From positions 3,180,342-3,244,341 of the forward strand of contig CAWJET010000001.1 of the NCBI GenBank assembly GCA_963842085.1: a DNA stretch of 64,000 bases. Direction: 5' to 3'. Shown here in pieces: positions 21,959 to 56,305 of the stretch (position 1 is the stretch's first letter; each line of letters begins with the position of its first letter). This stretch comes from an uncultured delta proteobacterium (lineage in GTDB: Bacteria > Desulfobacterota > Binatia > Binatales > Binataceae). Below the pieces are notes generated by a model that did no database searches, had not been told where the DNA came from, and saw only the letters and a list, made by a program, of their open reading frames with translations. Position numbers and translations under genes: made by a program.

Positions 21959-22036
21959 CCGGAATGGCGGGAAATCCTTCATGGTCGCACTGAAGTCGTC
22001 CTCTACTTTCGCGACCTTCTTCGAACCCGCAGACCG

Positions 22037-22415: not shown

Positions 22416-22601
22416 ATGAGAGCAACTCCGCAAGGAATGGTCCGCGATCCTCGGACCGGCGAAGTGCACATGCCACACAAGGCGCTCTCAATTATACGGA
22501 CCATGGAGAATCTCGACCGCACGCTGATCAAAATAAAATGGCAGGCGGGCGCTGAATCGGTTCTCCTTCCCGACGACATCGATTGGTATGAAGGCAGGTG
22601 A
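22416..22601 (+). CDS. Small hypothetical protein
   Basis: GAGGAG RBS before MRATPQG; the upstream in-frame part resembles the TPR gene tail. Confidence 0.5.
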   Translation: MRATPQGMVRDPRTGEVHMPHKALSIIRTMENLDRTLIKIKWQAGAESVLLPDDIDWYEGR

Positions 22602-22605
22602 GCCA

Positions 22606-27399: not shown

Positions 27400-27475
27400 A
27401 ATAGGAACCCTTTTTACACCGAAACAGGACTTCAAGATAACGACTCTGAACCCGAATTACCTTTACCTTTGCTAC
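27400..27475 (+). promoter_or_regulatory. Conserved upstream element, copy 2 (about 70 bp before xfp)
   Basis: AATAGGAACCCTTTTTACACCGAAACAGGACTTCAAGATAACGACTCTGAACCCGAATTACCTTT. Confidence 0.75.
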
Positions 27476-29990: not shown

Positions 29991-30010
29991 CGATCGAAGG
30001 AACTGTAGTC

Positions 30011-30598: not shown

Positions 30599-30618
30599 TC
30601 GATAACAGGAAGAAAACG

Positions 30619-33114: not shown

Positions 33115-33145
33115 TGTCGATTGCAGGTTCTTCGGAGAGCAAACA

Positions 33146-34795: not shown

Positions 34796-35868
34796 AGGCT
34801 ACTCAATGGCTCCACAATTTGGGGCAAAGCATCTGGCTCGATAACATCACGCGCGACCTGCTCGACAGCGGCACCCTCAAGCGCTACATCGATGATCTCT
34901 CGGTCACCGGGTTGACCTCTAATCCGACGATCTTCGATCACGCTATCACTCACAGCAAATCGTACGATTCTGAAATTCGCCGACTCATGGGGACCGGCCT
35001 CTCCGGTGAGGCATTGTTCTTTGAGCTGGCGGTGCAGGACCTGACGCGAGCCGCCGATCTGTTTGCTCCGATCAACGAACGCAGCGCCGGCGTAGACGGC
35101 TTCGTATCGCTGGAAGTGTCGCCGCTGCTCGCGTACGACGCAAAGAATACGGTCGCGCAGGCCAAAGCGCTTCACAAAAGGGCCAATCGATGCAACCTAT
35201 TCATCAAGATTCCGGGCACCAAGGAAGGAGCGCCTGCGATCGAAGAAGCGATCTTTTCGGGCGTGCCGGTGAATGTGACTCTGCTCTTCTCTCGTGAGCA
35301 TTACGTCGACGCGGCCGAGGCTTATATGCGCGGACTGGAGCGGCGCATCGCGGCCGGTATGAGTCCAGACGTCCGTTCGGTGGCGTCGCTCTTCATCAGC
35401 CGCTGGGACAAAGCGACGATGGATAAAGTGCCCGAGCGCGATCGCGACAAACTGGGAGTCGCAATCGGCCAGCAGACTTACAGGGCGTACCGCGACGTAC
35501 TCCAGTCGGATCGATGGCAGCGGCTGGCGAACTGCGGTGCTCGCTCGCAAAGGTTGCTGTTCGCAAGCACCGGCACCAAGGATCCTAAGGCCTCCGATGT
35601 CCTTTATATAGGCGCGCTGGCCGCCCCCAACACAATCAACACTATGCCGGAGGAGACCTTGCTCGCGTTCGGTGAGCACGGTCGGGTAACCGGCGTCATT
35701 CCGCGCGACGGCGCGGATTGTGAACAAGTCCTCGCAGAGTTCGGTCGGGTCGGAATTGACGTGGCAAAGCTCGGCGCCGATCTGCAGACGGAGGGAGCCA
35801 AATCCTTCGACGACTCCTGGAAGGATCTGTTAAACGCAATCGAGGCCAAGAGCAAAGCGCTGAAGTAA
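34792..35868 (+). CDS. tal: Transaldolase
   Basis: GQSIWLDNI, GLTSNPTIF, FIKIPGT, NVTLLFS, ASTGTKDP. Confidence 0.95.
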   Translation: MKATQWLHNLGQSIWLDNITRDLLDSGTLKRYIDDLSVTGLTSNPTIFDHAITHSKSYDSEIRRLMGTGLSGEALFFELAVQDLTRAADLFAPINERSAGVDGFVSLEVSPLLAYDAKNTVAQAKALHKRANRCNLFIKIPGTKEGAPAIEEAIFSGVPVNVTLLFSREHYVDAAEAYMRGLERRIAAGMSPDVRSVASLFISRWDKATMDKVPERDRDKLGVAIGQQTYRAYRDVLQSDRWQRLANCGARSQRLLFASTGTKDPKASDVLYIGALAAPNTINTMPEETLLAFGEHGRVTGVIPRDGADCEQVLAEFGRVGIDVAKLGADLQTEGAKSFDDSWKDLLNAIEAKSKALK

Positions 35869-35923
35869 TCAAGACGATTGACTCGCTCGCTTTTTTTCGA
35901 CCGACCATTCGAGGAGAACTAGC

Positions 35924-36841
35924 ATGACGCGCGGATATGATCTGCCACTGTACGTCCTGCCTTTCGATCATCGAGCATCTTTTGAGACGGGGATGTTCGG
36001 ATGGAAAGGCGAATTGACCCCCGAACAGACCGCTCAGATCGCCGAGGCAAAACGGGTGATCTACGACGGTTTGAAGGCGGCAATCGCCTCCGGAGTGCCG
36101 AAGCAGAAAGCAGCTATCCTGGTGGACGAGCAATTCGGGGCAGCCATTCTGCGCGACGCCAAGGCGGACGGCTACATGATCGCGTGTCCGGTTGAGAAAA
36201 GCGGACAGGACGAGTTCGATTTCGAGTACGGCGAAGCCTTCCACAACCACATCGAGGCCTTCCAGCCAACATTCTGCAAAGTCCTGGTGCGATACAACCC
36301 GGAGGGCGACCAAGCTCTGAACCGGAGACAAACGAAGCGTCTCACGCGGTTGTCCTATTACCTGCATAACTCGAAACCTAGACTTTTCATGTTTGAGCTC
36401 CTGGTTCCGGCAGAGAAAGCACAACTGGAAAAGGTCAAGGGCGACAAGAATGCGTACGACCTGGAGATTCGTCCTCGGCTAATGGTCCAGACCATCGAAG
36501 AGCTGCAGGACGCGCATGTCGAACCAGACGTTTGGAAGATCGAAGGCCTTGACCGCAGAGAGGATTGCGAGCGCGTTGTGGCGGCGGCTCGCTACGGGGG
36601 CCGCGACAAAGTCGGTTGCATCGTTCTGGGTCGCGGCGAGAACGACAAGAATGTGCGCGAATGGCTGACAACCGCGGCAACCGTGCCGGGCTTCATCGGA
36701 TTCGCCGTCGGTCGCACGGACTTCTGGGAACCTCTGGTCGGGTGGCGGGAGAAGAAAACCACGCGCGAAGCTGCGGTTGATGAAGTTGCCCGGCGGTATC
36801 GTGAATTCGTCGACATTTTTGAGAAAGCACGCGCCCAATAG
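35924..36841 (+). CDS. Stand-alone DUF2090 (IolC C-terminal, class I aldolase-like) protein
   Basis: LPFDHR, ILVDEQFG, KVLVRYNP, DVWKIEG, VLGRG, GFAVGRT. Confidence 0.85.
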   Translation: MTRGYDLPLYVLPFDHRASFETGMFGWKGELTPEQTAQIAEAKRVIYDGLKAAIASGVPKQKAAILVDEQFGAAILRDAKADGYMIACPVEKSGQDEFDFEYGEAFHNHIEAFQPTFCKVLVRYNPEGDQALNRRQTKRLTRLSYYLHNSKPRLFMFELLVPAEKAQLEKVKGDKNAYDLEIRPRLMVQTIEELQDAHVEPDVWKIEGLDRREDCERVVAAARYGGRDKVGCIVLGRGENDKNVREWLTTAATVPGFIGFAVGRTDFWEPLVGWREKKTTREAAVDEVARRYREFVDIFEKARAQ

Positions 36842-36911
36842 ACGCCGAATAACCAATTGCGCCGTGCCGGGTGAGCAGTCGCATCGAGAATTCGGTGGAG
36901 GCAAACGTCAA

Positions 36912-38072
36912 ATGGCTTCTCACGTCATACTATGCGTGAACAGCGGATCCTCTTCGCTCAAATTCGCACTCTACCGAATCGGTCATGGTGAAGAACTCCT
37001 GCTCGCGCAAGGTGCGGCCGAGCTCAACGATGGGCAAATCACTCGGCTTTGGATTCACAGCGCGCACGAGAAAGTCGAGAAAACGGGCAGCGAAATTTCT
37101 TCTGCGTCAACACCGCTGCACGCACTTGCCGTCGAGTTGAAGCGGTTGCGGCTCCCGCATCCCGACGCAGTCGGTCATAGACTGGTACACGGCGGCCGGC
37201 ACCATGGCAGCCCGGAACGGATCACTGATACGCTCTTCAATGAACTGGGCAGTTTGATCCCCTTTGCACCGCTGCATCTACCCAACGAGATTGCCGGCAT
37301 TGAGGCGGTCACTTCGAACTTCCCGAGCCTGCCGCAGGTCGCCTGCTTCGACACTGCTTTTCACCGCTCGATGCCGGAAGTTGCGCAGCGCTTCGCATTG
37401 CCGTGTGCGCTCTGGAACGAAGGCATTCGCCGCTACGGGTTTCACGGAATTTCCTACGAATACATCGTGCGGACTTTGGGTGTTAATCTGCCCTCCCGCC
37501 TAATTATCGCTCATCTCGGTAACGGCGCGAGCATGGCGGCAGTGAAAGACGGAAACCCGCTCGACACCACGATGGGATTCACTCCGGCTGGGGGCTTCAT
37601 GATGGGAACGCGCAGCGGAGATCTGGACCCCGGAATCTTTCTCTACCTATTAAACCAGAGGCATTTCGACGCACACAAACTCGCCGATCTTGTGAACCAT
37701 AAATCCGGATTACTCGGCGTATCAGGCATCTCCGATATGAGGATGCTGCTCGAACGAAGAGATACCGCACCAGATGCTGCGCTGGCGGTGCACATGGTTT
37801 GCTATCAGCTCCGAAAGCAGATCGGCGCCTTCACCGCCGCGCTGGGCGGACTCGATCTTCTGGTTTTTACGGGCGGCATTGGCGAACGAGCCGCTCCTGT
37901 GCGATGGGAGACGTGTAATGGTTTGGAGCACCTCGGCATCAACCTCGAACGCGAACGAAATCAGGCCAACGCCGACACGATTAGCAGCGATGACAGCCGC
38001 TGTCTCGTTCGCGTAATTCCAACGAATGAGGACCTGATGATAGCCCGTCATACCTACGAACTTGTCTTCTAG
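36912..38072 (+). CDS. ackA: Acetate kinase
   Basis: NSGSSSLKFALY, GHRLVHGG, YGFHGIS, HLGNGAS, FTGGIGE, PTNED. Confidence 0.95.
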   Translation: MASHVILCVNSGSSSLKFALYRIGHGEELLLAQGAAELNDGQITRLWIHSAHEKVEKTGSEISSASTPLHALAVELKRLRLPHPDAVGHRLVHGGRHHGSPERITDTLFNELGSLIPFAPLHLPNEIAGIEAVTSNFPSLPQVACFDTAFHRSMPEVAQRFALPCALWNEGIRRYGFHGISYEYIVRTLGVNLPSRLIIAHLGNGASMAAVKDGNPLDTTMGFTPAGGFMMGTRSGDLDPGIFLYLLNQRHFDAHKLADLVNHKSGLLGVSGISDMRMLLERRDTAPDAALAVHMVCYQLRKQIGAFTAALGGLDLLVFTGGIGERAAPVRWETCNGLEHLGINLERERNQANADTISSDDSRCLVRVIPTNEDLMIARHTYELVF

Positions 38073-38085
38073 GCGCGGTAGATCC

Positions 38086-40167
38086 ATGGCTAACTGGTCG
38101 CAAATCGAAGGTTCGCCACAGCCTCTTGGCGCTACTTGGCTCAAAGAGGAAAAGAGCTACAACTTCGCGCTGTACTCCAGGCATGCTACCGGCGTGACAC
38201 TCTTGCTGTACACGGCGCGCGATTTGGTTAACCCGGTTCTTCGTATCTCGCTCAATTATTTGACTCACAAATCAGGACGAATCTCGCATTGCCGCCTCAA
38301 AGCGGACGAGGTCGCCAATGCCTCTTACTACGCGTACTCGGTCGAAGGTCCGAGTAGCGCACTGGGGGAGGTCCACTTTTTCGATCCGGACAAAGTCCTT
38401 CTCGATCCTTACGCAAGGTCGCTCTTCTTTCCACCGGATTTTCGGCGTAGTGCTTCGATCGGACGGGGATCGAATGCCGGAAGAACGCCTCTTGGCGCGC
38501 TGCCAGTCAACATTCCAGAGTTTGACTGGGGCGGCGAATCCAACCCGTTTGACTGGGGCGGCGAATCCAACTCCCGCCACACGTCAGACACCATCATCTA
38601 TGAAATGCACGTCAGAGGTTTTACCAACAGAGACAATTCCGGAGTGTCCGCGGACAAGCGAGGAACATTTGCAGGAGTTGTTGAGAAAATTCCCTATCTC
38701 AAAGAGCTTGGAGTTACCGCGCTCGAGTTGATGCCGGTATTTCAGTACGACCCGGACGAAGGCAATTACTGGGGATACATGCCGCTGAACTTTTTCTCTC
38801 CGCATGAGGCTTACGCGGCGAATTTACCCGTCGCAGAAGCTGCAGCCGACTTCAAGGCGATGGTGAAAGAACTCCATTGCGCCGGGATCGAAGTAATTCT
38901 GGACGTGGTCTACAACCACACCACCGAAGCAGGCGCTGACGGGCCTACCTATAGCTATCGGGGCATTTGCAATAGCACCTACTACCTTCTCGACGAAAGC
39001 ATGACGCACTATCGGAACGATACCGGGACAGGCAATGTCTTGCGAGCGGCACATCCGACGGTGCGCAAGATGATAATCGACAGTCTCCGTTTCTGGATAC
39101 TTGAGATGCATGTCGACGGTTTCAGATTCGATCTCGCTTCCATCTTCAGCCGTAATGTCGACGGCTCGATCAACCTGAAAGACCCTCCATTGATTTCCGA
39201 GATAACGGGCGGCGCAGAATATGCTGATGTCCGGCTGATCGCCGAGGCATGGGATCCGGCCAGTTACGAACTAGGTCGCAGCTTCCCCGGTCAAACATGG
39301 AGCCAGTGGAATGGCAGGTTTCGAGATGATGTTCGCGAATTCGTCAAAAGCGATCCCGGAAAAGTTGGCGACCTCATGACCCGGCTCTATGGCAGCAGCG
39401 ATTTGTTTCCGGATGATCTCGACGACGCCTACCATCCTGCTCAAAGCATTAACTACGTCACTTCGCACGACGGCTTTTGTCTCTATGATCTGGTCGCGTA
39501 CAACGACAAGCATAATTTGGCTAATGGCCAGAACAATACTGATGGGACCGACAACAATCTGAGCTGGAACTGCGGATGGGAGGGCGATGAGAATGTGCCA
39601 GCGGAAGTGATGCGATTGCGAAAGCAGCAAATCAAGAATTTCTTTGCGATTTTGATGGTCTCGAACGGAACCCCGATGTTCTGTGCCGGCGATGAATTCA
39701 TGAATACGCAGCGCGGCAACAACAATCCCTGGAACCAGGATAACGAAACGACCTGGCTCGACTGGGATTTGCTCGAAAAGAACGGCGACATGTTCCGCTT
39801 CTTCAAAGGAATGATCGCTTTTCGCAAAGCGCACCCATCTTTGGCTCGCAGCCGATTCTGGCGTGATGACGTTAGCTGGTACGGTGTGAACGGTCAGGTG
39901 GATCTTGGCTATCTGTCGCATAGCCTCGCGTTCTGTTTGCATGGTTCTTCGCAACAGGATCGAGACATCTACGTGATGATAAACGCATACTGGCAGGATC
40001 TCAATTTCAAAATACAAGAGGGAAAGGCCGGCGACTGGAACTGTGTAGCAGATACAGGGATGTCGAGCCCGTCCGATTTTTTCGAGGTCGGGGAGCAAAA
40101 GGCTCTGACCTCATTGAGCTATGAGGTCAAAGCCAGATCGGTTGTAGTTCTGCTGCGCACGGCCTGA
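38086..40167 (+). CDS. glgX: Glycogen debranching enzyme/isoamylase (GH13)
   Basis: LLDPYA, IYEMHVRGFT, NYWGY, DVVYNHT, DGFRFDLA, AEAWD, HDGF. Confidence 0.95.
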   Translation: MANWSQIEGSPQPLGATWLKEEKSYNFALYSRHATGVTLLLYTARDLVNPVLRISLNYLTHKSGRISHCRLKADEVANASYYAYSVEGPSSALGEVHFFDPDKVLLDPYARSLFFPPDFRRSASIGRGSNAGRTPLGALPVNIPEFDWGGESNPFDWGGESNSRHTSDTIIYEMHVRGFTNRDNSGVSADKRGTFAGVVEKIPYLKELGVTALELMPVFQYDPDEGNYWGYMPLNFFSPHEAYAANLPVAEAAADFKAMVKELHCAGIEVILDVVYNHTTEAGADGPTYSYRGICNSTYYLLDESMTHYRNDTGTGNVLRAAHPTVRKMIIDSLRFWILEMHVDGFRFDLASIFSRNVDGSINLKDPPLISEITGGAEYADVRLIAEAWDPASYELGRSFPGQTWSQWNGRFRDDVREFVKSDPGKVGDLMTRLYGSSDLFPDDLDDAYHPAQSINYVTSHDGFCLYDLVAYNDKHNLANGQNNTDGTDNNLSWNCGWEGDENVPAEVMRLRKQQIKNFFAILMVSNGTPMFCAGDEFMNTQRGNNNPWNQDNETTWLDWDLLEKNGDMFRFFKGMIAFRKAHPSLARSRFWRDDVSWYGVNGQVDLGYLSHSLAFCLHGSSQQDRDIYVMINAYWQDLNFKIQEGKAGDWNCVADTGMSSPSDFFEVGEQKALTSLSYEVKARSVVVLLRTA
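38521..38574 (+). repeat. In-frame 27-bp tandem duplication in glgX
   Basis: TTTGACTGGGGCGGCGAATCCAAC occurs twice (FDWGGESNP-FDWGGESNS). Confidence 0.9.
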
Positions 40168-41241: not shown

Positions 41242-44200
41242 TCAAGGAAGAGATGATCTTTTGCCTACTATTTTGACTCGTTTACTCGTAGTCCTTGAGC
41301 GCGCACCATTAGTAGGTTCGCCGGTCTCGAGCAATTTGCGAACCGACGGTGCCGAGAGGAAAATCTTACGAAGCGGCTCGTCAGCCGGCATGGAATCAGC
41401 CAGTTTGAGAATCGTTGCTCGGCTAAGCTCGCGGTGATGTTCGGCCTCCTTGCTCTTTTCGCTGCCTCGACAAAGCTCGGCAGCTGTTGCGTGGACTCTC
41501 CAGGCAGCCAGCGGAACCTCGAAGCCTTGCATCGTTGACAAGGCATTCGTGATGCATTCGTGCGCGCGCTCGAGATCGCGCTGCGCCATCGCGACACGTG
41601 CGTTCGCCTCCCAAGCCACCGCCTGCCAAGTGCGCTCGGCAGTCACGAGAGTGACTTCGAGAAACCTCTCCGCCTCGGTTCGAGCCTGCTTCAAATCCCC
41701 CTTCGCCAGCCATAGTTCTGTAAGACTCGACTGGAGCTGCATGCGCCAGTACCAGTCTACTATGACCATCTGCTGGTTCATCGCGTTTCGAGCAGTCGAC
41801 AGATGCTCGAGCGCGAGATCATAATTTCCCAAACCTAATTCTGCTGAGCCTTGTATGATCAGACTGATGCGAGCGTCCTCTGGAAGCGGGCTTGAGGAAC
41901 CGGACTCCGCGCTCAGTACAGAATTTTCGGGATGAGAAAAAGACGATTCACAGATCTTCAACGCGCCCTCAAAGTCCATGGCGTGGAGATGTGCCCATGC
42001 CGGATAGAGCATCAAGGCGCTCGCGCGATACTGTTCACCATTCTTGTCCAGCATTGCGATTCCGGATCTATATTCGCGTAAGGCTTCTCCCCACTCTCCC
42101 AAAAAGAGAAGGCTTGAGGAGCCGAAGAGCTGATATACCCAGACGGCAAGGCTCAGATTTAGATAGTTCTCTTCGACGGTCTCGAACATCTTGTTGGATA
42201 CAGTCCCGGACAAGTTGCGGTGAGCATCGCGGTATTCGGAGGAAAGCCACTGTATCAAGCTGTATTGCGCCAAATGGTAGGAAAAGGTCACTGGGTCGCC
42301 GACCTCACGAATTTCATTCAGCGCAATTCGACACTCTTCCGCGTCCTGCGAATTCCATCCGCCTGCCCAAATTCGATAGAAGAAGCAGTTCATTCGGAAA
42401 CTTGCCCGCAGCAGCTGAACACTCTGGCTATTGCTAAGGAGTAGAGCCCGTTCCAGTACTTTGAGGCACCGATCGGAACTGATCCACATCAGGGGATATG
42501 CCAATCCGATCAGGGCGCGCGCCTCAACATCAATCAAGCCGAGGTGAGCGGCCCGCGATGCCATCGCTTCATAGTTGTCAATTGCCCGACGGTCATATTC
42601 GAGAGAGTAGATCATCCCCAGCTTCTCAAGAATTTCGATCTCGCTGACCGCACGCTTCTCCTCCGGAAGTTTGCTCGATAGTTCGAGTGCGCGCTGCAAA
42701 CTGGCCATAGCTTCCTGACTGGCAAAACGGTGTCTGGCGGTTTCAGCCGCGACGCGAAGATATTTGACTGCGCGCTGCCAGTCCGAAGCCTGCTCGAAGT
42801 GATGCGCCAATTCGGGCGCTGCCTCGCTCAAACGATCCGAGAAGAGTGTTTCCATCTCCTCTCCGATCCGCTGATGCAGCCTGGCCGCACGCCCCGATGC
42901 CAGCCTGCGATAGAGAACCTCTCGATAGAGTGCATGCACAAATTCGTAGCGCGCAGAGACGGTTCCGTCCGGCGATCGCTCCGAACCTGCCGAACGCACT
43001 ATGTGATGCCGGCGTGAGAGTTCTTCGCAGAAGTCTTCAAAGTCTTCTTGATCAACACCGGCTGCCGCCGCGCAGACCCTTGCTGAGAAGGCAACTCCAG
43101 CCACGCTTGCCACGTCCAGGGCGTGCCGCTGTTCGTCTGAAAGGTTGTCAATCTGCGCTTCGATCATGCGCCGCAACTTCTCTGGCGCGGCGAGAGCGAC
43201 TTGCTCCAGGGGGACCCGGAGCTTCCATGCCCCGCGCTCCTGGAAAACGAGGCCCTGCTCGGTCAGGTGGTCAAGCATCGCCACAACGAACAAGGGATTC
43301 CCCTCCGTGTGGTGATAGATCAACTTGGCCAAGCCCTCGGTAAGTTTGTCGCCCGACGACTCCGCCTCAAGATATTCAGCGACTTCTGCTTCGCTCAGTG
43401 GCTCCAAGTTGATCTGGCGACATAGCTGATGCAGCAGCAGGTCCTGCTTCAGCGCCTTCAACGGATGTTCCGGAATCACCATGTCCACCGGTCGCTTGGT
43501 CGCGACCAGCATCAGTTTGGCCGGCGCCCGTCGGCGCGCCAGCGCCGAGATGAGATCGACCGTCGAGGGATCCACCCACTGTAAATCCTCAAACAGCAAG
43601 AGCATGGGACTTGCCGAAGTGATGGCCTCCAGAGCATCGCCGATCTCGCGCAACATGCGCTCCCGTGTCGAGCCTAGAATCTCTCGCTGCAGCATCTCGC
43701 GCTGTTCGCGTTTCACCAACGCAGGAAACTGGACCAGCCAAGTTGGTGCCTGCGCGGCGAGTATTTGGACGACCGAGTCTCCACCGGCGCCGCGGCATAA
43801 CTGACCAAGAGTTTCAAGCATCGGGTAATAGGCTTCTTTGCCGCCGTAGCCCTCGACGCATTGGCCGCGCGCAATCCGAAGGCCCGGTGCCTCGACCGCC
43901 GCTTGGCGCTGGAACGCCTCGGCCAGCGCGGTTTTGCCGATGCCCGGCTCCCCCGTGATGAACACGATCTGCCGCTCGCCCCTTAACGCTTTCCCAAGGC
44001 AATCGCCCAGCTCGCTCAACTCTCGTTCTCTTCCGACCAGTTTGCCTCGCGCCGGCTGTGCTGGAACGGCCTGCAGAGCAGCCGTGCCCTCGCTCACTGC
44101 AGCGATAAACCGGTATCCCCGGCGATGCAGAGTTTCGATAAAGAGAGGGTTATTCGCCTGGTCGCCCAGCGCGCCTCTGAGGTCGAGGACGAGCTTTTTT

Positions 44201-44406
44201 ATGGCCTGCGGTTGAATGTGGGTGTTTGGCCACACCGCATCGAGGAGCTCATCATGCGTCACCAGACGTCCGGCTTGTTCCACCAGATGGTGCAGCACTG
44301 CGAACGCCTTGGGCGTCAACAGGATGCGCTCGTCGGCACCCTTCGTCCTGCGGCGCCACAGACACTGGTTGACGGTGTCGAGCCGGAATGGCGGAAACTC
44401 CTTCAT
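41242..44406 (-). CDS. Winged-HTH (Trans_reg_C) + AAA/STAND ATPase + helical-repeat regulator
   Basis: LTPKAFAVL...IETLHRRGYRF; LVGRERE; Walker A GEPGIGKT; EDLQW; TEGNPLF. Confidence 0.92.
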   Translation of the reverse strand: MKEFPPFRLDTVNQCLWRRRTKGADERILLTPKAFAVLHHLVEQAGRLVTHDELLDAVWPNTHIQPQAIKKLVLDLRGALGDQANNPLFIETLHRRGYRFIAAVSEGTAALQAVPAQPARGKLVGRERELSELGDCLGKALRGERQIVFITGEPGIGKTALAEAFQRQAAVEAPGLRIARGQCVEGYGGKEAYYPMLETLGQLCRGAGGDSVVQILAAQAPTWLVQFPALVKREQREMLQREILGSTRERMLREIGDALEAITSASPMLLLFEDLQWVDPSTVDLISALARRRAPAKLMLVATKRPVDMVIPEHPLKALKQDLLLHQLCRQINLEPLSEAEVAEYLEAESSGDKLTEGLAKLIYHHTEGNPLFVVAMLDHLTEQGLVFQERGAWKLRVPLEQVALAAPEKLRRMIEAQIDNLSDEQRHALDVASVAGVAFSARVCAAAAGVDQEDFEDFCEELSRRHHIVRSAGSERSPDGTVSARYEFVHALYREVLYRRLASGRAARLHQRIGEEMETLFSDRLSEAAPELAHHFEQASDWQRAVKYLRVAAETARHRFASQEAMASLQRALELSSKLPEEKRAVSEIEILEKLGMIYSLEYDRRAIDNYEAMASRAAHLGLIDVEARALIGLAYPLMWISSDRCLKVLERALLLSNSQSVQLLRASFRMNCFFYRIWAGGWNSQDAEECRIALNEIREVGDPVTFSYHLAQYSLIQWLSSEYRDAHRNLSGTVSNKMFETVEENYLNLSLAVWVYQLFGSSSLLFLGEWGEALREYRSGIAMLDKNGEQYRASALMLYPAWAHLHAMDFEGALKICESSFSHPENSVLSAESGSSSPLPEDARISLIIQGSAELGLGNYDLALEHLSTARNAMNQQMVIVDWYWRMQLQSSLTELWLAKGDLKQARTEAERFLEVTLVTAERTWQAVAWEANARVAMAQRDLERAHECITNALSTMQGFEVPLAAWRVHATAAELCRGSEKSKEAEHHRELSRATILKLADSMPADEPLRKIFLSAPSVRKLLETGEPTNGARSRTTSKRVKIVGKRSSLP

Positions 44407-44441
44407 AATCGCGCCTCGCGACTCCCAGTTTCCACGAACCG

Positions 44442-44517
44442 AACAGGAACTCTTTTTACACCAAAACGGGACTACAAGATAACGACTCTAAACCCGGATT
44501 ACCTTTATTTTCAGACG
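44442..44517 (+). promoter_or_regulatory. Conserved upstream element, copy 3 (divergent intergenic region)
   Basis: AACAGGAACTCTTTTTACACCAAAACGGGACTACAAGATAACGACTCTAAACCCGGATTACCTTT. Confidence 0.75.
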
Positions 44518-44562
44518 TGCGAAGAGAGCGATCAACGCCAACGAAACGTCGAGGGGATAGTC

Positions 44563-45378
44563 GTGAGAATAGGCATCGGTTCGGACAGCAGCGGTTTCCA
44601 GTTCAAGGAAAATCTGAAGGCCAGACTCAGAGCCCGAAGTCATGCGGTCGAAGATGTGTGCGCTTCTGATGTCACTCCAAGCGCGTGTCACGCTGCGACC
44701 GATCGACTCGCATCTGCCATCGGCCGTGGTCGTGTCGAACGGGGTATACTGATTTGCTCTGGCGCTATTGGCGCGTCGATTGCCGCTAAGAAACATCCCC
44801 GAGTTCGCGCAGCCTTTTGCCACGAAGTGCGCTCAGTTCAACGCGGCGTGCAGGACGACAACATGAATTTTCTGGTCCTGGAAACGCAGGCTGTCACGCA
44901 TGATTTTGCCTGCAAGTTGGCTGATATTTTCATAAACGCCTCCTGTTCTTCACGCGACAATACGTTCGGCATTCCTCCTCTCCGCTTGGCGCGCGTAGTT
45001 GAACGAATCAGAAGGAATCTGGATAAGCCGCTTGAGGTTGGCGAACTGTCGGGGCTAGCCGAGATGAGCCAGTCGCACTTTTCCAAGTTGTTCAAGCATA
45101 GCAGTGATCTGACCCCACATCAGTTCATCCTCCGTGAACGCATCAATCGTTCCAAGGAACTTTTGCGTCAAGGCAAGACAAAGATTGTGGACATCGCGCT
45201 CGAGGTTGGATTCCAGAGTCAGGCTCACTTCACAACGGTTTTCGGAAGTCTCGTCGGCATGACGCCGCGACAATTCCAGCGTTCTTGCTGTTACGGCATG
45301 CCGGTGGCGTATCCAAAAGCGCTGCCAGTTTTAAACCACCAGCAAGACGGTGTTCTTTCCTCGTTGGCTTCAACGTGA
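44563..45378 (+). CDS. RpiB/LacAB-domain + AraC-HTH fusion regulator
   Basis: RIGIGSDSSGFQFKE...RGILICSGAIGASIAAKKHPRVRAAFCH, then MSQSHFSKLFK...IALEVGFQSQAHFT.VF...GMTPRQF; GAGGGG RBS before GTG. Confidence 0.88.
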   Translation: MRIGIGSDSSGFQFKENLKARLRARSHAVEDVCASDVTPSACHAATDRLASAIGRGRVERGILICSGAIGASIAAKKHPRVRAAFCHEVRSVQRGVQDDNMNFLVLETQAVTHDFACKLADIFINASCSSRDNTFGIPPLRLARVVERIRRNLDKPLEVGELSGLAEMSQSHFSKLFKHSSDLTPHQFILRERINRSKELLRQGKTKIVDIALEVGFQSQAHFTTVFGSLVGMTPRQFQRSCCYGMPVAYPKALPVLNHQQDGVLSSLAST

Positions 45379-45389
45379 AGGAGGATTCG

Positions 45390-45845
45390 ATGGCTAGTCC
45401 AGGTACCAATTTCATAAGGGAATCTGAAGGGCAGCCCGATCATCGGGGTGTTTGTGCCTACCGTTCCGATCTTCGGCCCCAACTGATTCGATCAGCACAC
45501 TTCCGCGGAAAACGGCTAGGGGAAAATAAGACCGAACCGCTTCGTCGCCTGATGGCCGCTGTTCTTTGTGAAGCGGTCAACCGCTTTCAGAGAAACCTGT
45601 TTCACACCTCTCTCTACGGAAGGTGCGAATTTGTCGAGGCCGAGTTCTGGTTGTTCAGGGACCAGAGCAAAGCCCTCTTTTCCTTCAACAACGTGTGCGA
45701 TTTTCTCTCCCTTGATCCACAGCACATAAGACGGCGGCTCTGCGATTGGCGGCGGAGCCAGGTACGAGCCGCTAGTTCGACTGAAACCACTATGAAGGAC
45801 CCCGAAAGAGATCTGAGTGGTGAGCGTCCTTCCCCCTGTGGATAA
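45390..45845 (+). CDS. Hypothetical protein, paralog of 22606..23103
   Basis: EPLRRLMAAVLCEAV...EAEFWLF...FSFNNVCDFLSLDP..IRRRL; AGGAGG RBS. Confidence 0.75.
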   Translation: MASPGTNFIRESEGQPDHRGVCAYRSDLRPQLIRSAHFRGKRLGENKTEPLRRLMAAVLCEAVNRFQRNLFHTSLYGRCEFVEAEFWLFRDQSKALFSFNNVCDFLSLDPQHIRRRLCDWRRSQVRAASSTETTMKDPERDLSGERPSPCG

Positions 45846-46712: not shown

Positions 46713-47957
46713 GTGGTTCAGAAACCCCAGCCATGTTTTTCGGCTTCAAGAGCGAAGCCGACCGCGCCCGCTGGCATCGCCGCCGGGATTTTGATGGTAG
46801 CAATGGCCCTTTTTGCGTCGGGCTGCAAAAAGCCGGCACTGACCGCCGCGCCACTCGTCCCCGAAGTCGCTGTCACCGAAGTCATCCAGAAGGACGTAAC
46901 TTTGTACTCGGATTTTGTCGGCACCACCGTTGGGTTCGTCAACGCGGAGATCTATCCAAAAGTCTCCGGCTATCTACTGAAGCAGGATTACCGAGACGGC
47001 TCGCACGTGCACTCCAATCAACTGCTGTTTGAAATAGACGATCGCCCGTATAAGGCCGCGCTCGACCAGGCGCTCGGCACGCTCGCCGAGGAACAAGCCA
47101 CCCTAAAACAAAATCAACAGGACCTTGACCGCGATACCATACTTTATCAAAAACAGGTGATTCCCAAGGAGACTTTCGACCACATCACCCAGGCGTTTAA
47201 GGGGAGTGCGGCGCAAGTGCAAGCGGCGCAGGCTGCGGTCGAGAACGCCAAGCTCAACCTCGGATGGACCAAGGTCTACTCGCCGATAGATGGCGTCGCG
47301 GCAATCGCACAGGCCCAGGTCGGCGACCTGCTCAGCACCACGACTCTGCTGACGACAGTCTCGCAGCTCGACCCCATCAAAGTCACATTCCCAATTCCCG
47401 AGAAGGAGTACATGCACTTCGCGGCACAGATTAACGCGGTGGAGAACGGAGTTACGTTGCCGCCGCTGCCATTCCAAATGATCCTGGACAATGGCGAGAC
47501 CTACCAACATCTAGGCCAGTTTTACGCTGCTAATCGGCAGGTTGACATCCAGACCGGTACGATTCAGATTCAGGCAACTTTTCCGAACCCCGACAATATT
47601 CTGCGCCCTGGTCAGTACGCGAAGATCCGCGTCGCCGCCAGCGTCGTGCATAACGCGCTGCTCGTTCCGCAGGACGCCGTGCTCGAGACCCAAGGGCAAT
47701 ACCAAGTCGCCGTCGTGGGCTCGGACAACAAGGTGACGATGCGCACCGTCGAGCTCGGCCAGCAGGCAGGCGGTCTTCAACTCATCAAGAAGGGGATCTC
47801 GCCCGGCGAGCGTGTCGTCACCGAGGGATTGCAGATGGTTCACGACGGGATGGAAGTGAAACCGCGCGTTGTACCGGCCCAGCCTGCGCCGGAGGCTACA
47901 CCTGGATCTGCCGGCGAAGCGCCCTCGCCCGGCGCGACCTCACGCAGCCAGAGCTAG
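46713..47957 (+). CDS. RND efflux periplasmic adaptor (MFP)
   Basis: ASGC lipobox, [30 protein letters not shown]. Confidence 0.93.
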
Positions 47958-47961
47958 AGCA

Positions 47962-50900
47962 GTGTCGAAGTTTTTCATCAATCACCCGATCGTTGCGGTC
48001 GTTATCGCGATCTTCTTCGTCATCGCCGGTGCAGTGATGGCACTTCGGCTTCCGATCGCGCAGTTCCCCGACATCGTGCCGCCTCAGATCCAGACCACCG
48101 CCGTCTATACCGGCGCCGATGCGCTCACCGTCGAGGCTTCGGTCGCCACTCCGATCGAGGAGCAGGTCAACGGCGCCAAGCGCATGATCTACATGCAGTC
48201 GATCAACGGCAACGACGGGTCGATGACGCTGCAGGTCAGTTTCGAGACTGGCAGTGATGTCGATATCGACCAGGTCCAAGTCCAGAACCGGCTCTCCCAA
48301 GCGACCGCGAGCCTGCCTGCACAGGTCAACAGCTATGGGCTGACGACGCAGCAGACGGTCGGCATCCCATTGCTGGTGTTTACGATAAGTTCGCCGAACA
48401 GGACCTGGGACGCAACATTTTTGGCCAACTACGTTGCAATCAATATCGAAGACGAGCTTGCCCGGATTCCCGGCATCGGCCAGGTCAAGCTGTATGGAGC
48501 GTCCAACTATGCGATGCGGATTTGGGTCGCACCAGATGTCCTCTCCAAGCTTCAGTTGACGGTTGCAGACCTTGAGAATGCGATCGCGGCCCAGAATGTG
48601 GTCAATCCCGTGGGCCAGATCGGAGGTGAACCAGCCCCGCCGGGCCAGCAACTCACCTACACCGTGCGTGCCAAGGGACGCCTGATGAACGCGGAGGAGT
48701 TCGGGGAAATTATTATTCGCGCCAACCCGGACGGATCGCTGGTACGGCTAAAGGATGTCGCTCGGATTGATCTCGGCGCGGAAACCTACACGGAGCAGGC
48801 ATCTTTCAACGGAGCGCCGGCTGCGATCGTCGGCCTTTTCCAGAACCCCGCCTCCAATGCGCTCGCCGCCGCCAACCTGGCGAAGGCCAAAATGGCCGAA
48901 CTCGAGCGTCATTTTCCGGCAGACATGAAAGCCAATCTGACGTTGGACACGACTATCCCCGTCACCGAGGGCGCCTTGGAGATCGTGAAGACCCTGCTCG
49001 AAGCAATCGCCCTCGTGATCCTGGTGGTCTTCATCTTTTTGCAAAGCTGGCGGGCGACGTTGATCCCGCTGCTTACTATTCCCGTCTCGCTGGTAGGAGC
49101 TTTCATGTTCTTCCCGGCGGTCGGGTTCACGGTCAACACGCTTGCGCTTTTGGGGCTGGTGCTGGCGGTAGGCTTGGTGGTGGACGACGCTATCGTCGTG
49201 GTCGAAGCGATCCAGGCAAAGATCGAGCAGGGACGCTCGCCGAGGGACGCTGCCTTGGAAGCTATGGACGAGGTCGGCGGGGCGCTGGTCGGAATCGCCC
49301 TGGTGCTCTCCGCCGTCTTTATCCCGGCCGGATTCATGGCGGGAATAACGGGCTCGCTTTACCGCCAGTTCGCACTGACGATCGCATTTTCCGTGCTGCT
49401 CTCGTGCTTCAACGCTCTCACGCTGAGCCCGGCGCTCGGCGCAATTCTGCTGCGTCCAAAAAGCACCGGCACCGGCCGCGGACCACTCGCGCGCTTCTTC
49501 GCACTGTTCAACGCGGGGTTTGCGCGCGCGCAAAACGGCTACATCCGAACCTGCGATCTGCTCATCCGTAAGGTTGTGGTGGCGATCCTTGCGCTGCTGG
49601 GTTTTGCGGTATTTGCCGGCGGCTTGGGAAAGAATCTGCCGCAATCATTCCTGCCCGACGAAGACCAGGGCTGGTTTCTAATTCAGGTCCAGCTTCCCGC
49701 GGCCGCGTCGCTGCAGCGGACTAACGCCGCGATGAAGCAAATCGATCAAATCATCAGGAGCGAACCTGCGATCCTCTACTATAGCTCGAGCTCCGGCTTA
49801 AACTTCCTCACGCAGTTGAGCAGCCCCCGGAGCGGAGCCTATTTCTGCCAACTCCAGCCCTATGGCGAGCGAGGGACCGCTGCTCAGCAATCGCCAGCGA
49901 TCGTAGCTGACCTCAACCGCAAGCTGGCGGCGCTTCCCCAGGTGCAAGCTTTTGCATACTTGCCGCCGCCGATTCCCGGCATCGGCGAGGCTAGCGGTAT
50001 CGATTTCTTCGTTCAGGATCGGGCTGGCAAAACCGTCGATTATCTATGGGATAATACTCGGAAGTTCCTTGCCGCGGCGAAAAAACGGCCGGAGATTGGG
50101 CCTGTGTTCCTCCTGTTCGACCCAGCGGTTCCGCAGATGTTCGCCGCGGTTGACAAGGACAAGGTGTTCAAGCTCGGCGTTCCTATCGAAGACGTGTACA
50201 GCGCATTGCAGACCCTGCTTGGTGGCTATTACGTCAACCAGTTCAACCGCTTCGGGCGCGTGTGGAAGGTGTTCGTCGAAGCGGAGCCGCAGTACCGAGT
50301 CAGCGCGACTGACATCGGCCAGTTTTACGTCCGCAACAATCAGGGTTCGATGGTTCCGTTGTCGACGCTGATCGACATGAAGCGGGCGTTCGGCCCCGAA
50401 TATACAACCCGCTTCAACGAGTACCGCGGCATCGAGATATTCGCAGTCCCTGCTCCCGGTTACAGCACCGGCCAGGCGATGAACGCGGTGGGCGAGGTCG
50501 CAAACCAGGTTCTCCCCCGTGATATGGGATATGCTTGGAACGGAATCTCTTACCAGCAGGCTGTCGCCGGCGGTGGGGCTCAAGTCTTCGCGCTGTCGCT
50601 GGTATTTGTATTTCTGATCCTGGCTGCTCTCTATGAGAGCTGGTCGCTGCCCTTCAGCGTGCTACTGAGCGTGCCGGTCGCCGTATGTGGCGCTTTCTTC
50701 GGCCTGTGGTCACGCCATCTCGACAACGACGTCTATGCCCAGGTCGGTCTCATAATGCTGATCGGTCTGTCGGCCAAGAATGCGATCTTAATAGTTGAGT
50801 TTGCCAAAGCCGAGCTCGAGAAGGGCGAGTCGATAGTCTCGGCGGCGCTCAAGGGCGCCCGCGTGCGTCTGCGGCCGATCCTGATGACTTCCTTCGCGTT

Positions 50901-51156
50901 CATCATCGGCCTGTCTCCTTTATGGATCGCTTTGGGTGCTGGCGGGCAAGCCCGCCGTCTGATCGGGACGGTGACCATAACCGGCATGTTCTTCTCCACC
51001 GCCTTCGCCATCTTCCTCATTCCGGCGCTGTTCGTCGTTGTCGAGCGGATGTCGCATGGCATTAAGGGTAAGCCGCTTGAGCCGTCGGCAACTCAGCGGC
51101 GGGCTTCCGCGCAGGTGCGTCTACTTCGCGAGCCGGATAAAGGGCCGCTGCGCTGA
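47962..51156 (+). CDS. RND efflux permease (AcrB/HAE1 family)
   Basis: [56 protein letters not shown]. Confidence 0.96.
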
Positions 51157-53564: not shown

Positions 53565-56279
53565 TCACACGACAAACGCGCACTGCTCCTGGGGTGTCCG
53601 AGTATCCATGTTCCGCCCCCGATTTAGGTGGTCATCGATCTCTGCGGCAGCGCCGATCATGCGGCCATAAAGGAACACATTGAAGGCAGCTGTCTCCAGG
53701 TCCTTTTCGGTCAGCGCCCCCGACCGATAGTCCTTCCAGAGGACCGCGAGAAGCAGAGCAGCAATGATTGCATCGACATTGACGCAGAAGACATACCGCG
53801 AAGCGCCGGCGTCATAGAGCGCCTGCACGAGTTCACGGTAGAATGCGTGGAAGACATTGTAGTCCCCACGGTTTTCCATGAACTCCGCAATGAACCGCTC
53901 GCGCGGATCGTAGTTTACCGGCTTGCCCTTGAAGATCGGGTGATGAACACCCGGCAACGCGCGTGGCCCCTCGAAGCCGGCTTCCTTCGATTGAGACTTC
54001 TCGTCCCTGTACACATCGGCAAACCTCATGGCCATCGCCTTCAGATCAAGGCCGTGCTCGCGATCGCTTGGGTTCTCGAGGTCGACGCCCTTGAACTGCT
54101 CCAGGAGAAAGGCCATGGCCTCAAATCCATTGCCGCCGTGGCTGTAGCCGCTGTGCGTCAGGAAGCCGACCATCGCCTTGTTGATCTGCACCCGACCCGG
54201 CGTCTGCGGGCCGTCGGCCGCAACCGCTCCCTTGGCGCCCTGCGCCGTGATCGAGCCCGGACCGTTCGAGATCAGCAGCCCGATCAGGATTTGCAGCGGC
54301 CGCGCCTCTATCTCGGTCGGCTTCTTGCCGGTTAAAGCCAGAAACAGGAATTCTGCCATAGTCCACCGGCCGAAGCGTTCGTCGCGGAGGATGCCCCGAA
54401 GACTGCCATGTTGGTGATACTTGCCGGGGATCGAGGCGCCGATCATCACTCCGTATAGGCGCAGATACCACGGCAGCGTCTCCGCAGTGAGCCGCGAAAT
54501 CCGCTTGCGCATCAACGGCCCCCACGCGATCGTCATTGCAATGGCAGCCAGGATCGCGTCGCGCGAAAGCCGTCCGTCCAGCGACTCCAGAAACTTGAGA
54601 AACAGCGATTTGCCGCCGCGATCACGGACTGCCTTAAGCATTGCCTCGGGACGCGGGTCGTTCGCCTCGGCGGCTGTGGCCAGGAACAGCGTGCGAGCCT
54701 TCTCGTCAACTTCGATCACGCTGAAGTCCATGCCCTCGTCATGAGAATCGAGCCGCCCGGAATGCGCGAACAGGTCGATGAGCCGCTTGGAGCAGAGCAG
54801 CGCGCGTTCGACGCGCTTCGGACCGATGAGCGCTGCTGCAGCCGCCATTACCGTGTTGGGCGAGTTTCCCGCCTCGCGCGCCGCGTCCGCTGCGGCCAGC
54901 GCCGCGTCGCCGACGAGGTTGATCTCCGCCGCGACGGCAATATCGAGCAGGGCCCAATCGTTCTCCGAGGCGATCTCGTGCACCAGCGGCAGCGCGAAAT
55001 TGGCTTCGAGCGGCAGCAGCGCAAGATCGAGCAGGGAATGGCCGTGCACGCTCGTCACCTGCGTTCGCGGATCCATGACCGTGGCGCCGGACTTGTCCTT
55101 CATGGTCTGGCGCGGAACGACTGCACCGATCTGGTCGCCGAGTGAGCTGATCTGGCTGTTGTACGGCGGCAGGGCTTCGACCGTTTCCAGCGCGAGCGCC
55201 TGCGGCAATTTCAGGCCCTGGTCATTGGCGATCCACGGCTTGAGTAGAAGGCTGCCGCGCCGCGGTAAATCCGGCCTTGCCCCGTTGAGTTTCATTACGG
55301 CGCTCAGCGCAAGCGGGATATGCGCGATATTGGTCACGACCGCGCCTCTCGCGGAGACAACCGGCTTCTCGGGCGTGAATAGTCCATCCACGCCGAACGC
55401 TTCCATGAACCATCGCTCTTTGTCCTCGGCCTTGTCGCCGGAGCCCGCCATGGCGCCGGCATGTCCCACGGCTCGCGTCAGTTTGGATTTCCACCGGCCG
55501 ACGACGCATGCCACGACCGGCTTATGGAAGTCGACGCCCTGCTCGTAGTAGCCGCCGGGCTCCGCATAGAGCACGGCCGCCTTGCTGCGCGGATCGTTCT
55601 TGAGCGCGTGGGCAAAGTCGCGAGCGGCATAATGGATGTAGACGTCCTTGCCGGACGAGATGAGCGTCGTGGTACCCCAGCCCTCGGTTGTGAGATACTG
55701 GGCAATGGTGGTGGTGAATCCGCCGGAGTTGGAGAATATCGCGACCGAGCCTTTGAGCAGGACCTCCTCGGGATTGTCGCCGCCGAGCGCGCCGCCGATC
55801 CGCACGCGGTTCCAGGAATCGGCCACGCCAAGGCAGTTGGCGCCAAAGATGTCGATGCCGTTGGCCTGGCCGAGCGCCCGGATCTCGCGGGCATCGTGCA
55901 CCGAGACCTTCTCGGTTATCATGACGATCTTCTCAAGATCCGGATTCACCCGGATCAGCTCGGCAACGCCGTCGCGGACCCCCGATGGCGGCAGGTAGAC
56001 CACGCCGGTGTTGAACGAAAGCCCCTCGTCGAGCCCTTCGCGGACATTGTTGTAGACGGGAATGTCGCCGACCGGTGTCGGCAGCACCTGCCCGCGCCGA
56101 CCCGGCGATGTACCGAACGCGACGTTACCGCTAGAAAATGCGTGGCTGACCGGCGTCACCTGGCGAGACTCAGCGCCCAGGATATTGAGAACGCAAACGC
56201 GATCGTCGCGCGTAGCCACCTTGTCGAGCGCGTCGATGCCCAGATAGTACGGGAAGCCCTCGATGCCTCTCTTGAACAT
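53565..56279 (-). CDS. aclA: ATP-citrate lyase large subunit (CoA-binding + ligase + citrate-synthase-like domains)
   Basis: GANCLG, SNSGG, AEPGG, GHAGA (phospho-His), HGGNG, PGVHHP, VNVDA.IA. Confidence 0.8.
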   Translation of the reverse strand: MFKRGIEGFPYYLGIDALDKVATRDDRVCVLNILGAESRQVTPVSHAFSSGNVAFGTSPGRRGQVLPTPVGDIPVYNNVREGLDEGLSFNTGVVYLPPSGVRDGVAELIRVNPDLEKIVMITEKVSVHDAREIRALGQANGIDIFGANCLGVADSWNRVRIGGALGGDNPEEVLLKGSVAIFSNSGGFTTTIAQYLTTEGWGTTTLISSGKDVYIHYAARDFAHALKNDPRSKAAVLYAEPGGYYEQGVDFHKPVVACVVGRWKSKLTRAVGHAGAMAGSGDKAEDKERWFMEAFGVDGLFTPEKPVVSARGAVVTNIAHIPLALSAVMKLNGARPDLPRRGSLLLKPWIANDQGLKLPQALALETVEALPPYNSQISSLGDQIGAVVPRQTMKDKSGATVMDPRTQVTSVHGHSLLDLALLPLEANFALPLVHEIASENDWALLDIAVAAEINLVGDAALAAADAAREAGNSPNTVMAAAAALIGPKRVERALLCSKRLIDLFAHSGRLDSHDEGMDFSVIEVDEKARTLFLATAAEANDPRPEAMLKAVRDRGGKSLFLKFLESLDGRLSRDAILAAIAMTIAWGPLMRKRISRLTAETLPWYLRLYGVMIGASIPGKYHQHGSLRGILRDERFGRWTMAEFLFLALTGKKPTEIEARPLQILIGLLISNGPGSITAQGAKGAVAADGPQTPGRVQINKAMVGFLTHSGYSHGGNGFEAMAFLLEQFKGVDLENPSDREHGLDLKAMAMRFADVYRDEKSQSKEAGFEGPRALPGVHHPIFKGKPVNYDPRERFIAEFMENRGDYNVFHAFYRELVQALYDAGASRYVFCVNVDAIIAALLLAVLWKDYRSGALTEKDLETAAFNVFLYGRMIGAAAEIDDHLNRGRNMDTRTPQEQCAFVV

Positions 56280-56305
56280 GCGCCGGTCCTATCGCCTGCT
56301 GTCCA

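Follow-up and report, generated by a model that had tools for sequence, protein, structure and literature searches.

FtrA and GbdR are AraC/XylS regulators whose N-terminal domain has an enzyme fold of the DJ-1/PfpI, GATase1-like type. In RpiR and HexR, the sensing of a phosphosugar by a SIS domain governs rpiB, zwf or sugar-acid genes, and SoxS-type proteins, which control zwf, are an earlier example of AraC-family regulators that act on the pentose-phosphate pathway. Among the isomerases themselves, the mycobacterial type of RpiB uses a Glu as its catalytic base. A preprint describes the binding of a phosphosugar by an RpiR-type regulator (bioRxiv 10.64898/2025.12.10.693482). For RpiB, excerpts of PMC4783025 assign the role of catalytic base to a Cys and that of proton relay to a Thr, and name His11, Arg113, Arg137 and Arg141 as the anchors of the phosphate; with respect to the ring-opening His, the same excerpts give the L. 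donovani mutant H102N as inactive and the E. coli mutant H99N as having a 26-fold lower kcat. Here we have analysed a gene in which an RpiB-like domain is fused to an AraC-type DNA-binding domain. It lies at 44563-45378 on the + strand of a 64,000-nucleotide (nt) stretch of DNA from an uncultured delta proteobacterium of the Binataceae (assembly GCA_963842085.1, contig CAWJET010000001.1, positions 3,180,342 to 3,244,341). This whole stretch is called the window, and coordinates refer to it unless a locus is named. On balance, we lean towards the reading that the product is a one-component AraC-family regulator with a sugar-metabolite-sensing pseudo-RpiB dimer, for which we infer both the ligand and the DNA target. 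The fusion is probably a so far undescribed metabolic regulator.

The gene starts with GTG at 44563, ends with TGA at 45376-45378 and encodes 271 residues, on the combined evidence of its translation, its Pfam matches and the starts of its homologues. The list of open reading frames offers a longer frame from an ATG at 44125, and this extension overlaps the opposite-strand gene at 41242-44406. The homologues have no such N-terminal extension: residue 1 is V in 60 and M in 58 of 119, followed by R-I-G. They accordingly support the GTG at 44563, the start chosen in the preliminary description. Pfam places LacAB_rpiB (PF02502) on residues 3-130 (44569-44952) with an E value of 1.8e-26 and 93.2 bits (cut-off 24.7), covering profile positions 1-128 of 138. 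HTH_18 matches residues 165-240 with an E value of 6.7e-20 and 71.6 bits (cut-off 33.6), and HTH_AraC matches in two stretches with 71.1 bits (cut-off 26.6). The AraC-type domain with its two helix-turn-helix motifs takes up residues 139-244 (44977-45294). It is followed by a poorly conserved tail (45295-45375), which is predicted to be disordered, with a predicted local distance difference test score (pLDDT) below 50 at residues 246-271 and no family consensus beyond residue 240. No sigma-70 consensus promoter was found in 44380-45480.

The AlphaFold2 model of the fusion protein, built with 119 sequences, has a mean pLDDT of 83.3 and shows two confident domains. Between them, the linker of residues 126-138 (44938-44976) has neither helix nor strand, with pLDDT below 50 at residues 130-133, and stands at the position of the phosphate-binding C-terminal helix in RpiB. 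In Foldseek comparisons, the N-terminal domain superposed on E. coli RpiB (2vvr_B and 1nn4_A) with a root-mean-square deviation (rmsd) of 1.6 Å over 126 columns; the template modelling (TM) score normalised to the target was 0.83 for 3he8_A and ranged from 0.81 to 0.83 over 2vvr, 3he8 and 1o1x. Seven helices were modelled between residues 139 and 244, and this C-terminal domain superposed on AraC-type domains with an rmsd of 1.4 Å for 3oio and 1.2 Å for 3w6v_A, the range including 3lsg being 1.2-1.4 Å. The fold places the N-terminal half in the PF02502 superfamily, and the DNA-binding domain makes the protein a member of the AraC/XylS family. A homodimer model of residues 1-130 reached a score of 0.50, with the best control at 0.00, and three runs had at least 97% of the contacts in common, with a partner pLDDT of at least 86. 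In our calibration the mark was reached by 20 of 30 solved same-chain pairs and by 1 of 23 solved single chains, counts that are only rough because our own alignment was used. The modelled interface takes in residues 67-70 and 98-99, which represent the old active site. Given the solved RpiB dimers, the pass of this model may show likeness to them rather than binding.

The pocket at this interface is altered. When the protein is aligned to the RpiB of C. thermocellum (3he8), the His after the Asp of the G-S-D motif is Ser (residue 9), the Cys of the catalytic loop is retained, Gly replaces the Thr that stands two residues further on, Q-D-D is found in place of E-H-N, and the Arg after the G-E turn is Gln (residue 109). 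Counts over the family refer to 119 core members, the window's protein included. Asp8 of RpiB is kept in 118 of them and Cys65 in all 119. RpiB has a His at position 9, which only 6 members keep, with Gln in 53, Arg in 25 and Ser in 17 of the others; position 98, again His in RpiB, is Asp in 112; and position 99, which is Asn in 3he8 and Asp in neighbouring stand-alone RpiBs, is Asp in 105 and Glu in 14. The column of the Thr holds Arg, Gly or Ser across the family, and position 109, Arg in RpiB, holds Gln, Cys, Tyr or Gly. The C-terminal Arg/His helix of RpiB is replaced by the linker, the Pfam match ending at position 128 of 138 of the profile. Judged from these residues, the retained pocket is predicted to hold an invariant Cys and three conserved acidic residues. 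The preliminary description had drawn attention to drifted RpiB motifs, and G-S-D-S (residues 6-9), C-S-G-A-I-G (65-70) and A-K-K (75-77) are all present as it quoted them. Lys76 of the A-K-K motif is a strain-level polymorphism: position 76 is Asn in RpiB and in 118 of the 119 family members, the window's Lys being the sole exception, and at 44790 the contigs of three of four soil runs have C for G, which turns AAG (Lys) into AAC (Asn), with one run matching the window.

Five stand-alone RpiBs encoded beside acidobacterial fusions retain His9, Cys65, His98 and Arg109 as well as the C-terminal E-E-R-H-x-R-R-L helix, and are 37% identical to the window's N-terminal domain. The fusion protein scores below the NCBIfam cut-offs for RpiB, with 91.7 against 135 for NF004051, 66.4 against 138.65 for TIGR01120 and 69.4 against 88.3 for TIGR00689. 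In addition, the window's genome (G000) encodes a separate RpiA. Since pocket residues are replaced, the NCBIfam scores lie below the cut-offs and an RpiA is encoded elsewhere in the genome, the ribose 5-phosphate isomerase activity of the fusion has very probably been lost. On the residues themselves, we would predict that the fusion is not a functional RpiB, as several of the catalytic and phosphate-binding features that we looked for are missing from it.

The preliminary description had proposed that the fusion of RpiB to AraC is real, with uniqueness to this assembly as the observation that would speak against it. Both PF02502 and an AraC-type helix-turn-helix are present in 118 of the 120 best database clusters at 90% identity, the exceptions being P0048, which lacks PF02502, and P0056, which lacks an AraC helix-turn-helix family. 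These 120 clusters are 59-93% identical to the window's protein and mostly 260-277 residues long. At the level of 50% clusters there are about 8-10 full-length fusion clusters, including divergent ones at 31-40% identity, after which plain AraC proteins dominate. A metagenome scan gave at least 540 relatives among at least 599 matched stretches, and contigs of two other soil runs span the domain junction unbroken (44339-45012 and 44300-45013). Accordingly, the fusion is not an accident of assembly or a chance junction; the architecture is widespread.

On the other hand, we did not find the fusion in a sample of 200 other genomes from the phylum of the window (E 1e-40), and in 150 other genomes of its class no match spanned both domains, the two halves matching separately. 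It was likewise not found in 300 other genomes of the phylum of the acidobacterial genome G350, nor in 120 others of its order, scans that were limited to the scoring of 8 and 21 first-look candidates per genome. The family is rare among the searched species-representative genomes and recurrent in soil metagenomes. Loci of its main clade are labelled Acidobacteriota, Acidoferrales and, for one 11-kb contig, Udaeobacter. Labels from more than one phylum suggest transfer between phyla, though errors of binning may play a part. The upstream region and gene order of that Udaeobacter (Verrucomicrobiota) contig are near-identical to those of an Acidobacteria-labelled locus (L006 and L009), and this cross-phylum label may therefore be a binning error.

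With respect to gene context, the preliminary description had linked the fusion to sugar-phosphate metabolism and had proposed a search for the LacAB_rpiB and HTH_18 architecture and its neighbourhoods; the family so found lies beside sugar-phosphate genes. We counted contexts by tblastn over 80 metagenome loci, 46 of them with at least 1 kb of downstream sequence, and 7 genome loci, 6 of them with at least 1 kb. A pentose-phosphate gene follows on the same strand within 2.5 kb in 43 of the 46 metagenome loci (all except L039, L105 and L115), and in 41 of those 43 it is a transketolase gene. Pentose-phosphate genes also follow in 5 of the 6 genome loci, the exception being L003. The typical operon behind the fusion is tkt-rpiB-tal/pgi-gnd-zwf: in L008, transketolase, a normal RpiB, a transaldolase/phosphoglucose isomerase fusion, 6-phosphogluconate dehydrogenase and glucose-6-phosphate dehydrogenase follow in this order on the same strand. 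The transaldolase and phosphoglucose isomerase domains of L008 stand in one frame of 987 residues (11499-14462). Divergent from the fusion and upstream of it lie genes for an extracytoplasmic function (ECF)-like sigma factor and a PAS-PP2C (SpoIIE-type) phosphatase (L008 5663-7706, - strand), and this pair is present in 46 of the 54 metagenome loci that have at least 1.3 kb of upstream sequence. The conserved pair hints at a stress input to the pentose-phosphate operon.

In the window, a different set of genes stands nearby. At 27546-40167 on the + strand, Pfam matches identify a putative target operon of phosphoketolase, histidine phosphatase, glycogen phosphorylase, phosphoglucomutase, transaldolase, DUF2090, acetate kinase and isoamylase genes, which form an unbroken same-strand series that abut or overlap, with malQ just before them. 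Divergent from the fusion, at 41242-44406 on the - strand, lies a gene for a STAND-type regulator of 1054 residues, with an OmpR-type winged helix, an AAA_16 ATPase and TPR repeats (Pfam). Two related loci, L003 and L004, labelled Binataceae and uncultured delta proteobacterium, are syntenic with the window, and their fusions are 80% identical to the window's. The acetate kinase gene ackA lies upstream of the fusion in the window and in both of them, and the isoamylase gene in the window and L004. Two metagenome loci, L038 and L039, whose fusion is 83% identical, have the same neighbours as far as their contigs reach, and the STAND gene stands beside the fusion in L003, L004 and L038, that is, in all close loci with upstream sequence. 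The contexts of both clades centre on sugar-phosphate-rearranging enzymes. In L003, a transketolase match (about 750-2770) lies between DUF2090 and acetate kinase, which abut in the window.

The fusion gene and the phosphoketolase gene xfp share an upstream element of about 70 nt. It contains the 15-mer CAAGATAACGACTCT, which has three exact + strand copies in the window, 88-113 nt before + strand start codons; the chance estimate for this 15-mer (mean 1.02) allows up to 3 mismatches, whereas the observed copies are exact. The copy upstream of the fusion spans 44438-44507 (copy 3), with the 15-mer at 44475-44489 starting 88 nt before the GTG. Copy 2 lies between malQ and xfp at 27400-27465, its 15-mer (27433-27447) standing 113 nt before the ATG at 27546. 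Copy 1 lies at 22033-22100 (15-mer 22070-22084), upstream of the genes orf22167 and orf22588, its distance being taken from the ATG at 22167. All three copies are on the + strand and are alike over about 70 nt. Across the 4.93-Mb genome, an 80-nt probe of the element matched only at these three places, with identities of 100, 89 and 81%. The element had been named in the preliminary description; it is common to the regions upstream of the fusion and of the phosphoketolase operon, copy 1 being its only other occurrence in the genome. As a separate observation, in two soil runs 8 extra nt follow position 44437, on the upstream border of the element.

In related genomes there are four copies of the element in G346 and two in G347. 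The genes that these copies precede are the fusion, xfp and the orf22167/orf22588 pair, and one copy, in G346, adjoins a second STAND paralogue; the position before xfp is held in both genomes, and copy 1 has its orthologue in G346. In five genomes of the same genus the element was not found, the only match being 24 nt long with an E value of 0.127 in G274 (unpublished). The same five genomes are without the fusion and without a STAND match above 42% identity, and four of them have xfp. The element is therefore best read, on these patterns of occurrence, as one that comes and goes with the STAND-fusion pair. A consensus RNA fold of nine copies had 0 pairs (RNAalifold), and Rfam gave no match in 44300-44700 at E up to 1. 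A structured leader or known RNA as the identity of the element was rejected on these two results, which fit a site that acts at the level of DNA. In our best reading, the element is a putative promoter/operator module in the DNA, through which a very small, local regulon would be controlled.

Behind the fusion, 12 nt after its stop codon, lies the small gene orf45390 (45390-45845, + strand), which has no Pfam family. It stands close behind the fusion in all four close loci (L003, L004, L038 and L039) as in the window, and from this short spacing it is probably co-transcribed with the fusion. It is a paralogue of orf22588 (22588-23103, + strand), with 38% identity over 98 residues and an E value of 3.4e-22. 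Both come second after a copy of the element, and neither has a Pfam family. In the atlas, the clusters nearest to them consist of hypothetical proteins, most often from Candidatus Binatota.

In the mechanism that we favour, the N-terminal module would be an RpiB domain that has given up isomerase chemistry and kept the fold, the RpiB-type dimer and the pocket at the interface. The pseudo-RpiB domains would dimerise, and the old active site would take up a small metabolite that derives from sugars in pentose-phosphate or phosphoketolase metabolism. The occupancy of the pocket may then alter the way in which the two AraC DNA-binding domains, on their flexible linkers, contact repeated promoter sites. 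The regulon would be one of sugar-phosphate rearrangement. In the main soil clade, labelled Acidobacteriota, the target would be the tkt-rpiB-tal/pgi-gnd-zwf operon headed by the fusion gene itself; in the window's genome, it would probably be the phosphoketolase/glycogen operon together with the fusion gene, reached through the element of about 70 nt. The observations comprise the architecture and its conservation, the fold with its lost residues, the gene contexts and the common, genome-unique element; from them, the binding of a ligand, the ligand's identity, the DNA target and the sign of regulation are inferred. A bolder form of this reading holds that the RpiB fold has been recruited as a true effector sensor, that the thiolate pocket at the interface reads pentose-phosphate/phosphoketolase status through a sugar ligand or through its own redox state, and that the family is dedicated to regulating the complete pentose-phosphate operon in a lineage of soil Acidobacteriota that is abundant and uncultured, from where it was transferred to Binatota-like bacteria and rewired to the phosphoketolase/glycogen module. 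We put this form forward only tentatively.

Several observations weigh against the favoured regulator. The pocket has lost phosphate-binding residues and gained two acidic ones (Asp98 and Asp/Glu99), which argues against an anionic pentose phosphate held in the manner of RpiB. The pentose phosphates that the preliminary description had suggested as ligands were a guess from context and fare poorly here, with the phosphate-holding His, Arg and C-terminal Arg/His helix gone from the pocket. In three distant fusion clades (P0129, P0137 and P0142) the Cys is replaced, by Thr in two and by Ser in one, and a common ligand across the whole family is accordingly doubtful. The DNA-recognition helices are almost identical between the two clades, and we therefore expected that the clades would share an operator. 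However, we found none: the best 9-mer, with up to 1 mismatch, occurred in 15 of 48 non-redundant acidobacterial upstream regions, and shuffled cores reached a mean of 16.4 regions, with 120 of 200 as good or better. A T-A-A-C-G-x-C core that by eye seemed common to both clades was rejected by this shuffled-core test.

The promoter of the main clade also speaks against the favoured regulator. A sigma-54-type site (T-G-G-C-A, six bases, T-T-G-C-A) precedes the main-clade fusion gene, 46-51 nt before its start codon in 70 of the 79 loci that have enough upstream sequence (L005-L009 and L040-L116; for example L008 7951-7966), and members of the AraC family are not known to act at promoters of this type. 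The search pattern follows the general sigma-54 consensus and was written after five of these loci had been seen. The nine loci without the site include the three of the Binataceae type, and sigma-54 is encoded in all four genomes checked. About 167 nt upstream of the fusion start, and always some 117 nt away from the site, 60 of the 79 loci have a conserved, partly palindromic motif (T-T-G-A-C-G, 2-4 bases, A-A-C-G-T-C-G-A-G-G; for example L008 7834-7851), which is where an enhancer-binding protein would sit. No gene for an enhancer-binding activator was seen near the main-clade fusion loci.

The position of the element raises the question of which protein binds it, and the STAND regulator is an equally good candidate for the binder as the fusion. 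In this alternative, the winged helix of the STAND protein would bind the element and activate the xfp/glycogen operon, the gene pair behind copy 1 and the fusion, and the fusion would be a regulon member with other targets. We regard this as a serious possibility, at a little below an even chance. MalT, as an ATP-dependent activator of glucan catabolism, offers an analogy. The STAND gene is divergent from the element copy on the fusion side. In two of the three window copies, the element adjoins a STAND 5' end, one of them a remnant: beside copy 1, at 21863-21982 on the - strand, 39 codons begin M-K-D-F-P-P-F-R, and the STAND gene begins M-K-E-F-P-P-F-R. This remnant, from its matching start, is a putative relic of a duplicated STAND-side intergenic unit. 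The similarity among the copies runs upstream towards the STAND start, and the repeated unit therefore looks like a duplicated STAND-side intergenic region. With the G346 copy beside the second STAND paralogue, these STAND 5' ends mean that the STAND protein may be the binder, which counts against the fusion in that role. On the other hand, the xfp copy has no adjoining STAND remnant. Of the genomes examined, three have the STAND gene, the fusion and the element, in each case together, and none of these features was found in the five same-genus genomes; however, this co-occurrence does not separate the STAND protein from the fusion. Finally, AraC-family genes commonly adjoin their own targets and regulate themselves, which favours the fusion as the binder of the element.

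A further alternative keeps the fusion as the regulator and does without a metabolite ligand. The RpiB half would then be a dimerisation scaffold, or its buried Cys would be a redox switch that ties oxidative stress to the NADPH-producing pentose-phosphate operon. The predicted dimer does use the RpiB interface, all core members have Cys65, and 113 of the 119 also have Cys86. The main-clade gene lies by zwf and gnd and, in 46 of 54 loci, is divergent from the ECF-like sigma factor and PAS-PP2C pair, and zwf of E. coli is under the AraC-family proteins SoxS, MarA and Rob. However, a pure scaffold would not need Asp8, Cys65 and Asp98/99 to be conserved together. Cys86 is also present in all five neighbouring stand-alone RpiBs, so that its conservation in ordinary RpiB says nothing on redox sensing, and no second Cys placed for a disulfide was seen in the results obtained. 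We consider this alternative unlikely.

An alternative that we judge to be slightly more unlikely still is a trigger enzyme, in which the RpiB half still isomerises a substrate, perhaps an unphosphorylated sugar, and couples its turnover to DNA binding. It is in keeping with the catalytic Cys in 119 and Asp8 in 118 of 119 members, and with the fusion being the only PF02502 match in G000, G346 and G347. Excerpts of PMC4207490 and PMC4783025 describe the acceptance of unphosphorylated sugars by some RpiB enzymes, which would favour it as well. However, the ring-opening His98 is Asp in 112 of 119 members, at the residue whose mutants in the L. donovani and E. coli enzymes are cited above, and the position of the Thr holds Arg, Gly or Ser. 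An Arg and the C-terminal helix are lost, and the NCBIfam scores lie below the RpiB cut-offs. G000 has an RpiA, and distant clades lack the Cys.

That the fusion, like many small AraC regulators, controls the downstream resistance-nodulation-division (RND) efflux pump genes (46713-51156) is very improbable and was rejected because this neighbourhood is not conserved in L003: genes of the membrane fusion protein (MFP) and AcrB types do follow about 1.3 kb downstream on the same strand, but no element copy stands before them, the 8 kb downstream of the L003 fusion have no MFP or AcrB match, and the pump is not a neighbour in L003-L009, the pump proteins not having been queried in the wider set of loci. 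Further along the window, two adjacent genes on the - strand (53565-57586) encode ATP-citrate-lyase-type domains, Citrate_bind with ATP-grasp_2 in one and Succ_CoA_lig with CoA_binding in the other.

The names under which the fusion proteins appear in the source data, RpiB or sugar-phosphate isomerase, are probably wrong, and such misnaming can put a false isomerase step into metabolic reconstructions of genomes from soil metagenomes. If the pocket binds a metabolite, the family would provide a new sensor fold for AraC regulators and a new case of an enzyme turned sensor. The fusion would also offer a handle on the control of the pentose-phosphate pathway and of the glycogen-phosphoketolase route in uncultured soil bacteria of the Acidobacteriota and the Binatota-like type. 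In the full text that was searched, with few subscription journals covered, we found no paper on the control of these pathways in such bacteria and no description of the RpiB-AraC architecture. The three-copy, genome-unique element defines a very small candidate regulon that is directly testable.

Compared with RpiB/AlsB (2vvr, 1nn4, 3he8), the fusion shows similarity in its fold and in its predicted dimer interface, and the family retains the Asp of G-S-D, the catalytic Cys, the A-N-K helix (with Lys in this strain) and the M-N-x-L strand. However, the His, the Thr, the ring-opening His, the Arg and the C-terminal helix are replaced, and a DNA-binding domain has been added. With MarA, SoxS and Rob, it shares the DNA-binding domain, which matches the structures and models of MarA, SoxS, RamA and Rob. 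MarA and SoxS, in contrast, have no sensor domain, Rob has a GyrI-like one, and by eye we recognised no marbox-like site in the element. With RpiR and HexR (HTH_6 and SIS), the fusion shares a domain of isomerase ancestry and, on the favoured reading, would share the control of sugar-phosphate genes, but it differs in the sensor fold (RpiB rather than SIS), in the DNA-binding domain and in the order of the domains, which is opposite, and our searches showed no sequence relation between them. With FtrA and GbdR, on the one hand, residues 140-241 of the DNA-binding half match the respective NCBIfam models at 2e-16 and 4e-16, and both arrangements place a catalytically doubtful enzyme-fold domain, as the N-domains of FtrA and GbdR are generally described, before an AraC double helix-turn-helix. 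On the other hand, the N-terminal fold is that of RpiB, and the fusion stays far below the full-length cut-offs of those models. By analogy, therefore, we would expect the fusion to work most like the AraC regulators with a decayed enzyme domain and, in its logic, like RpiR and HexR.

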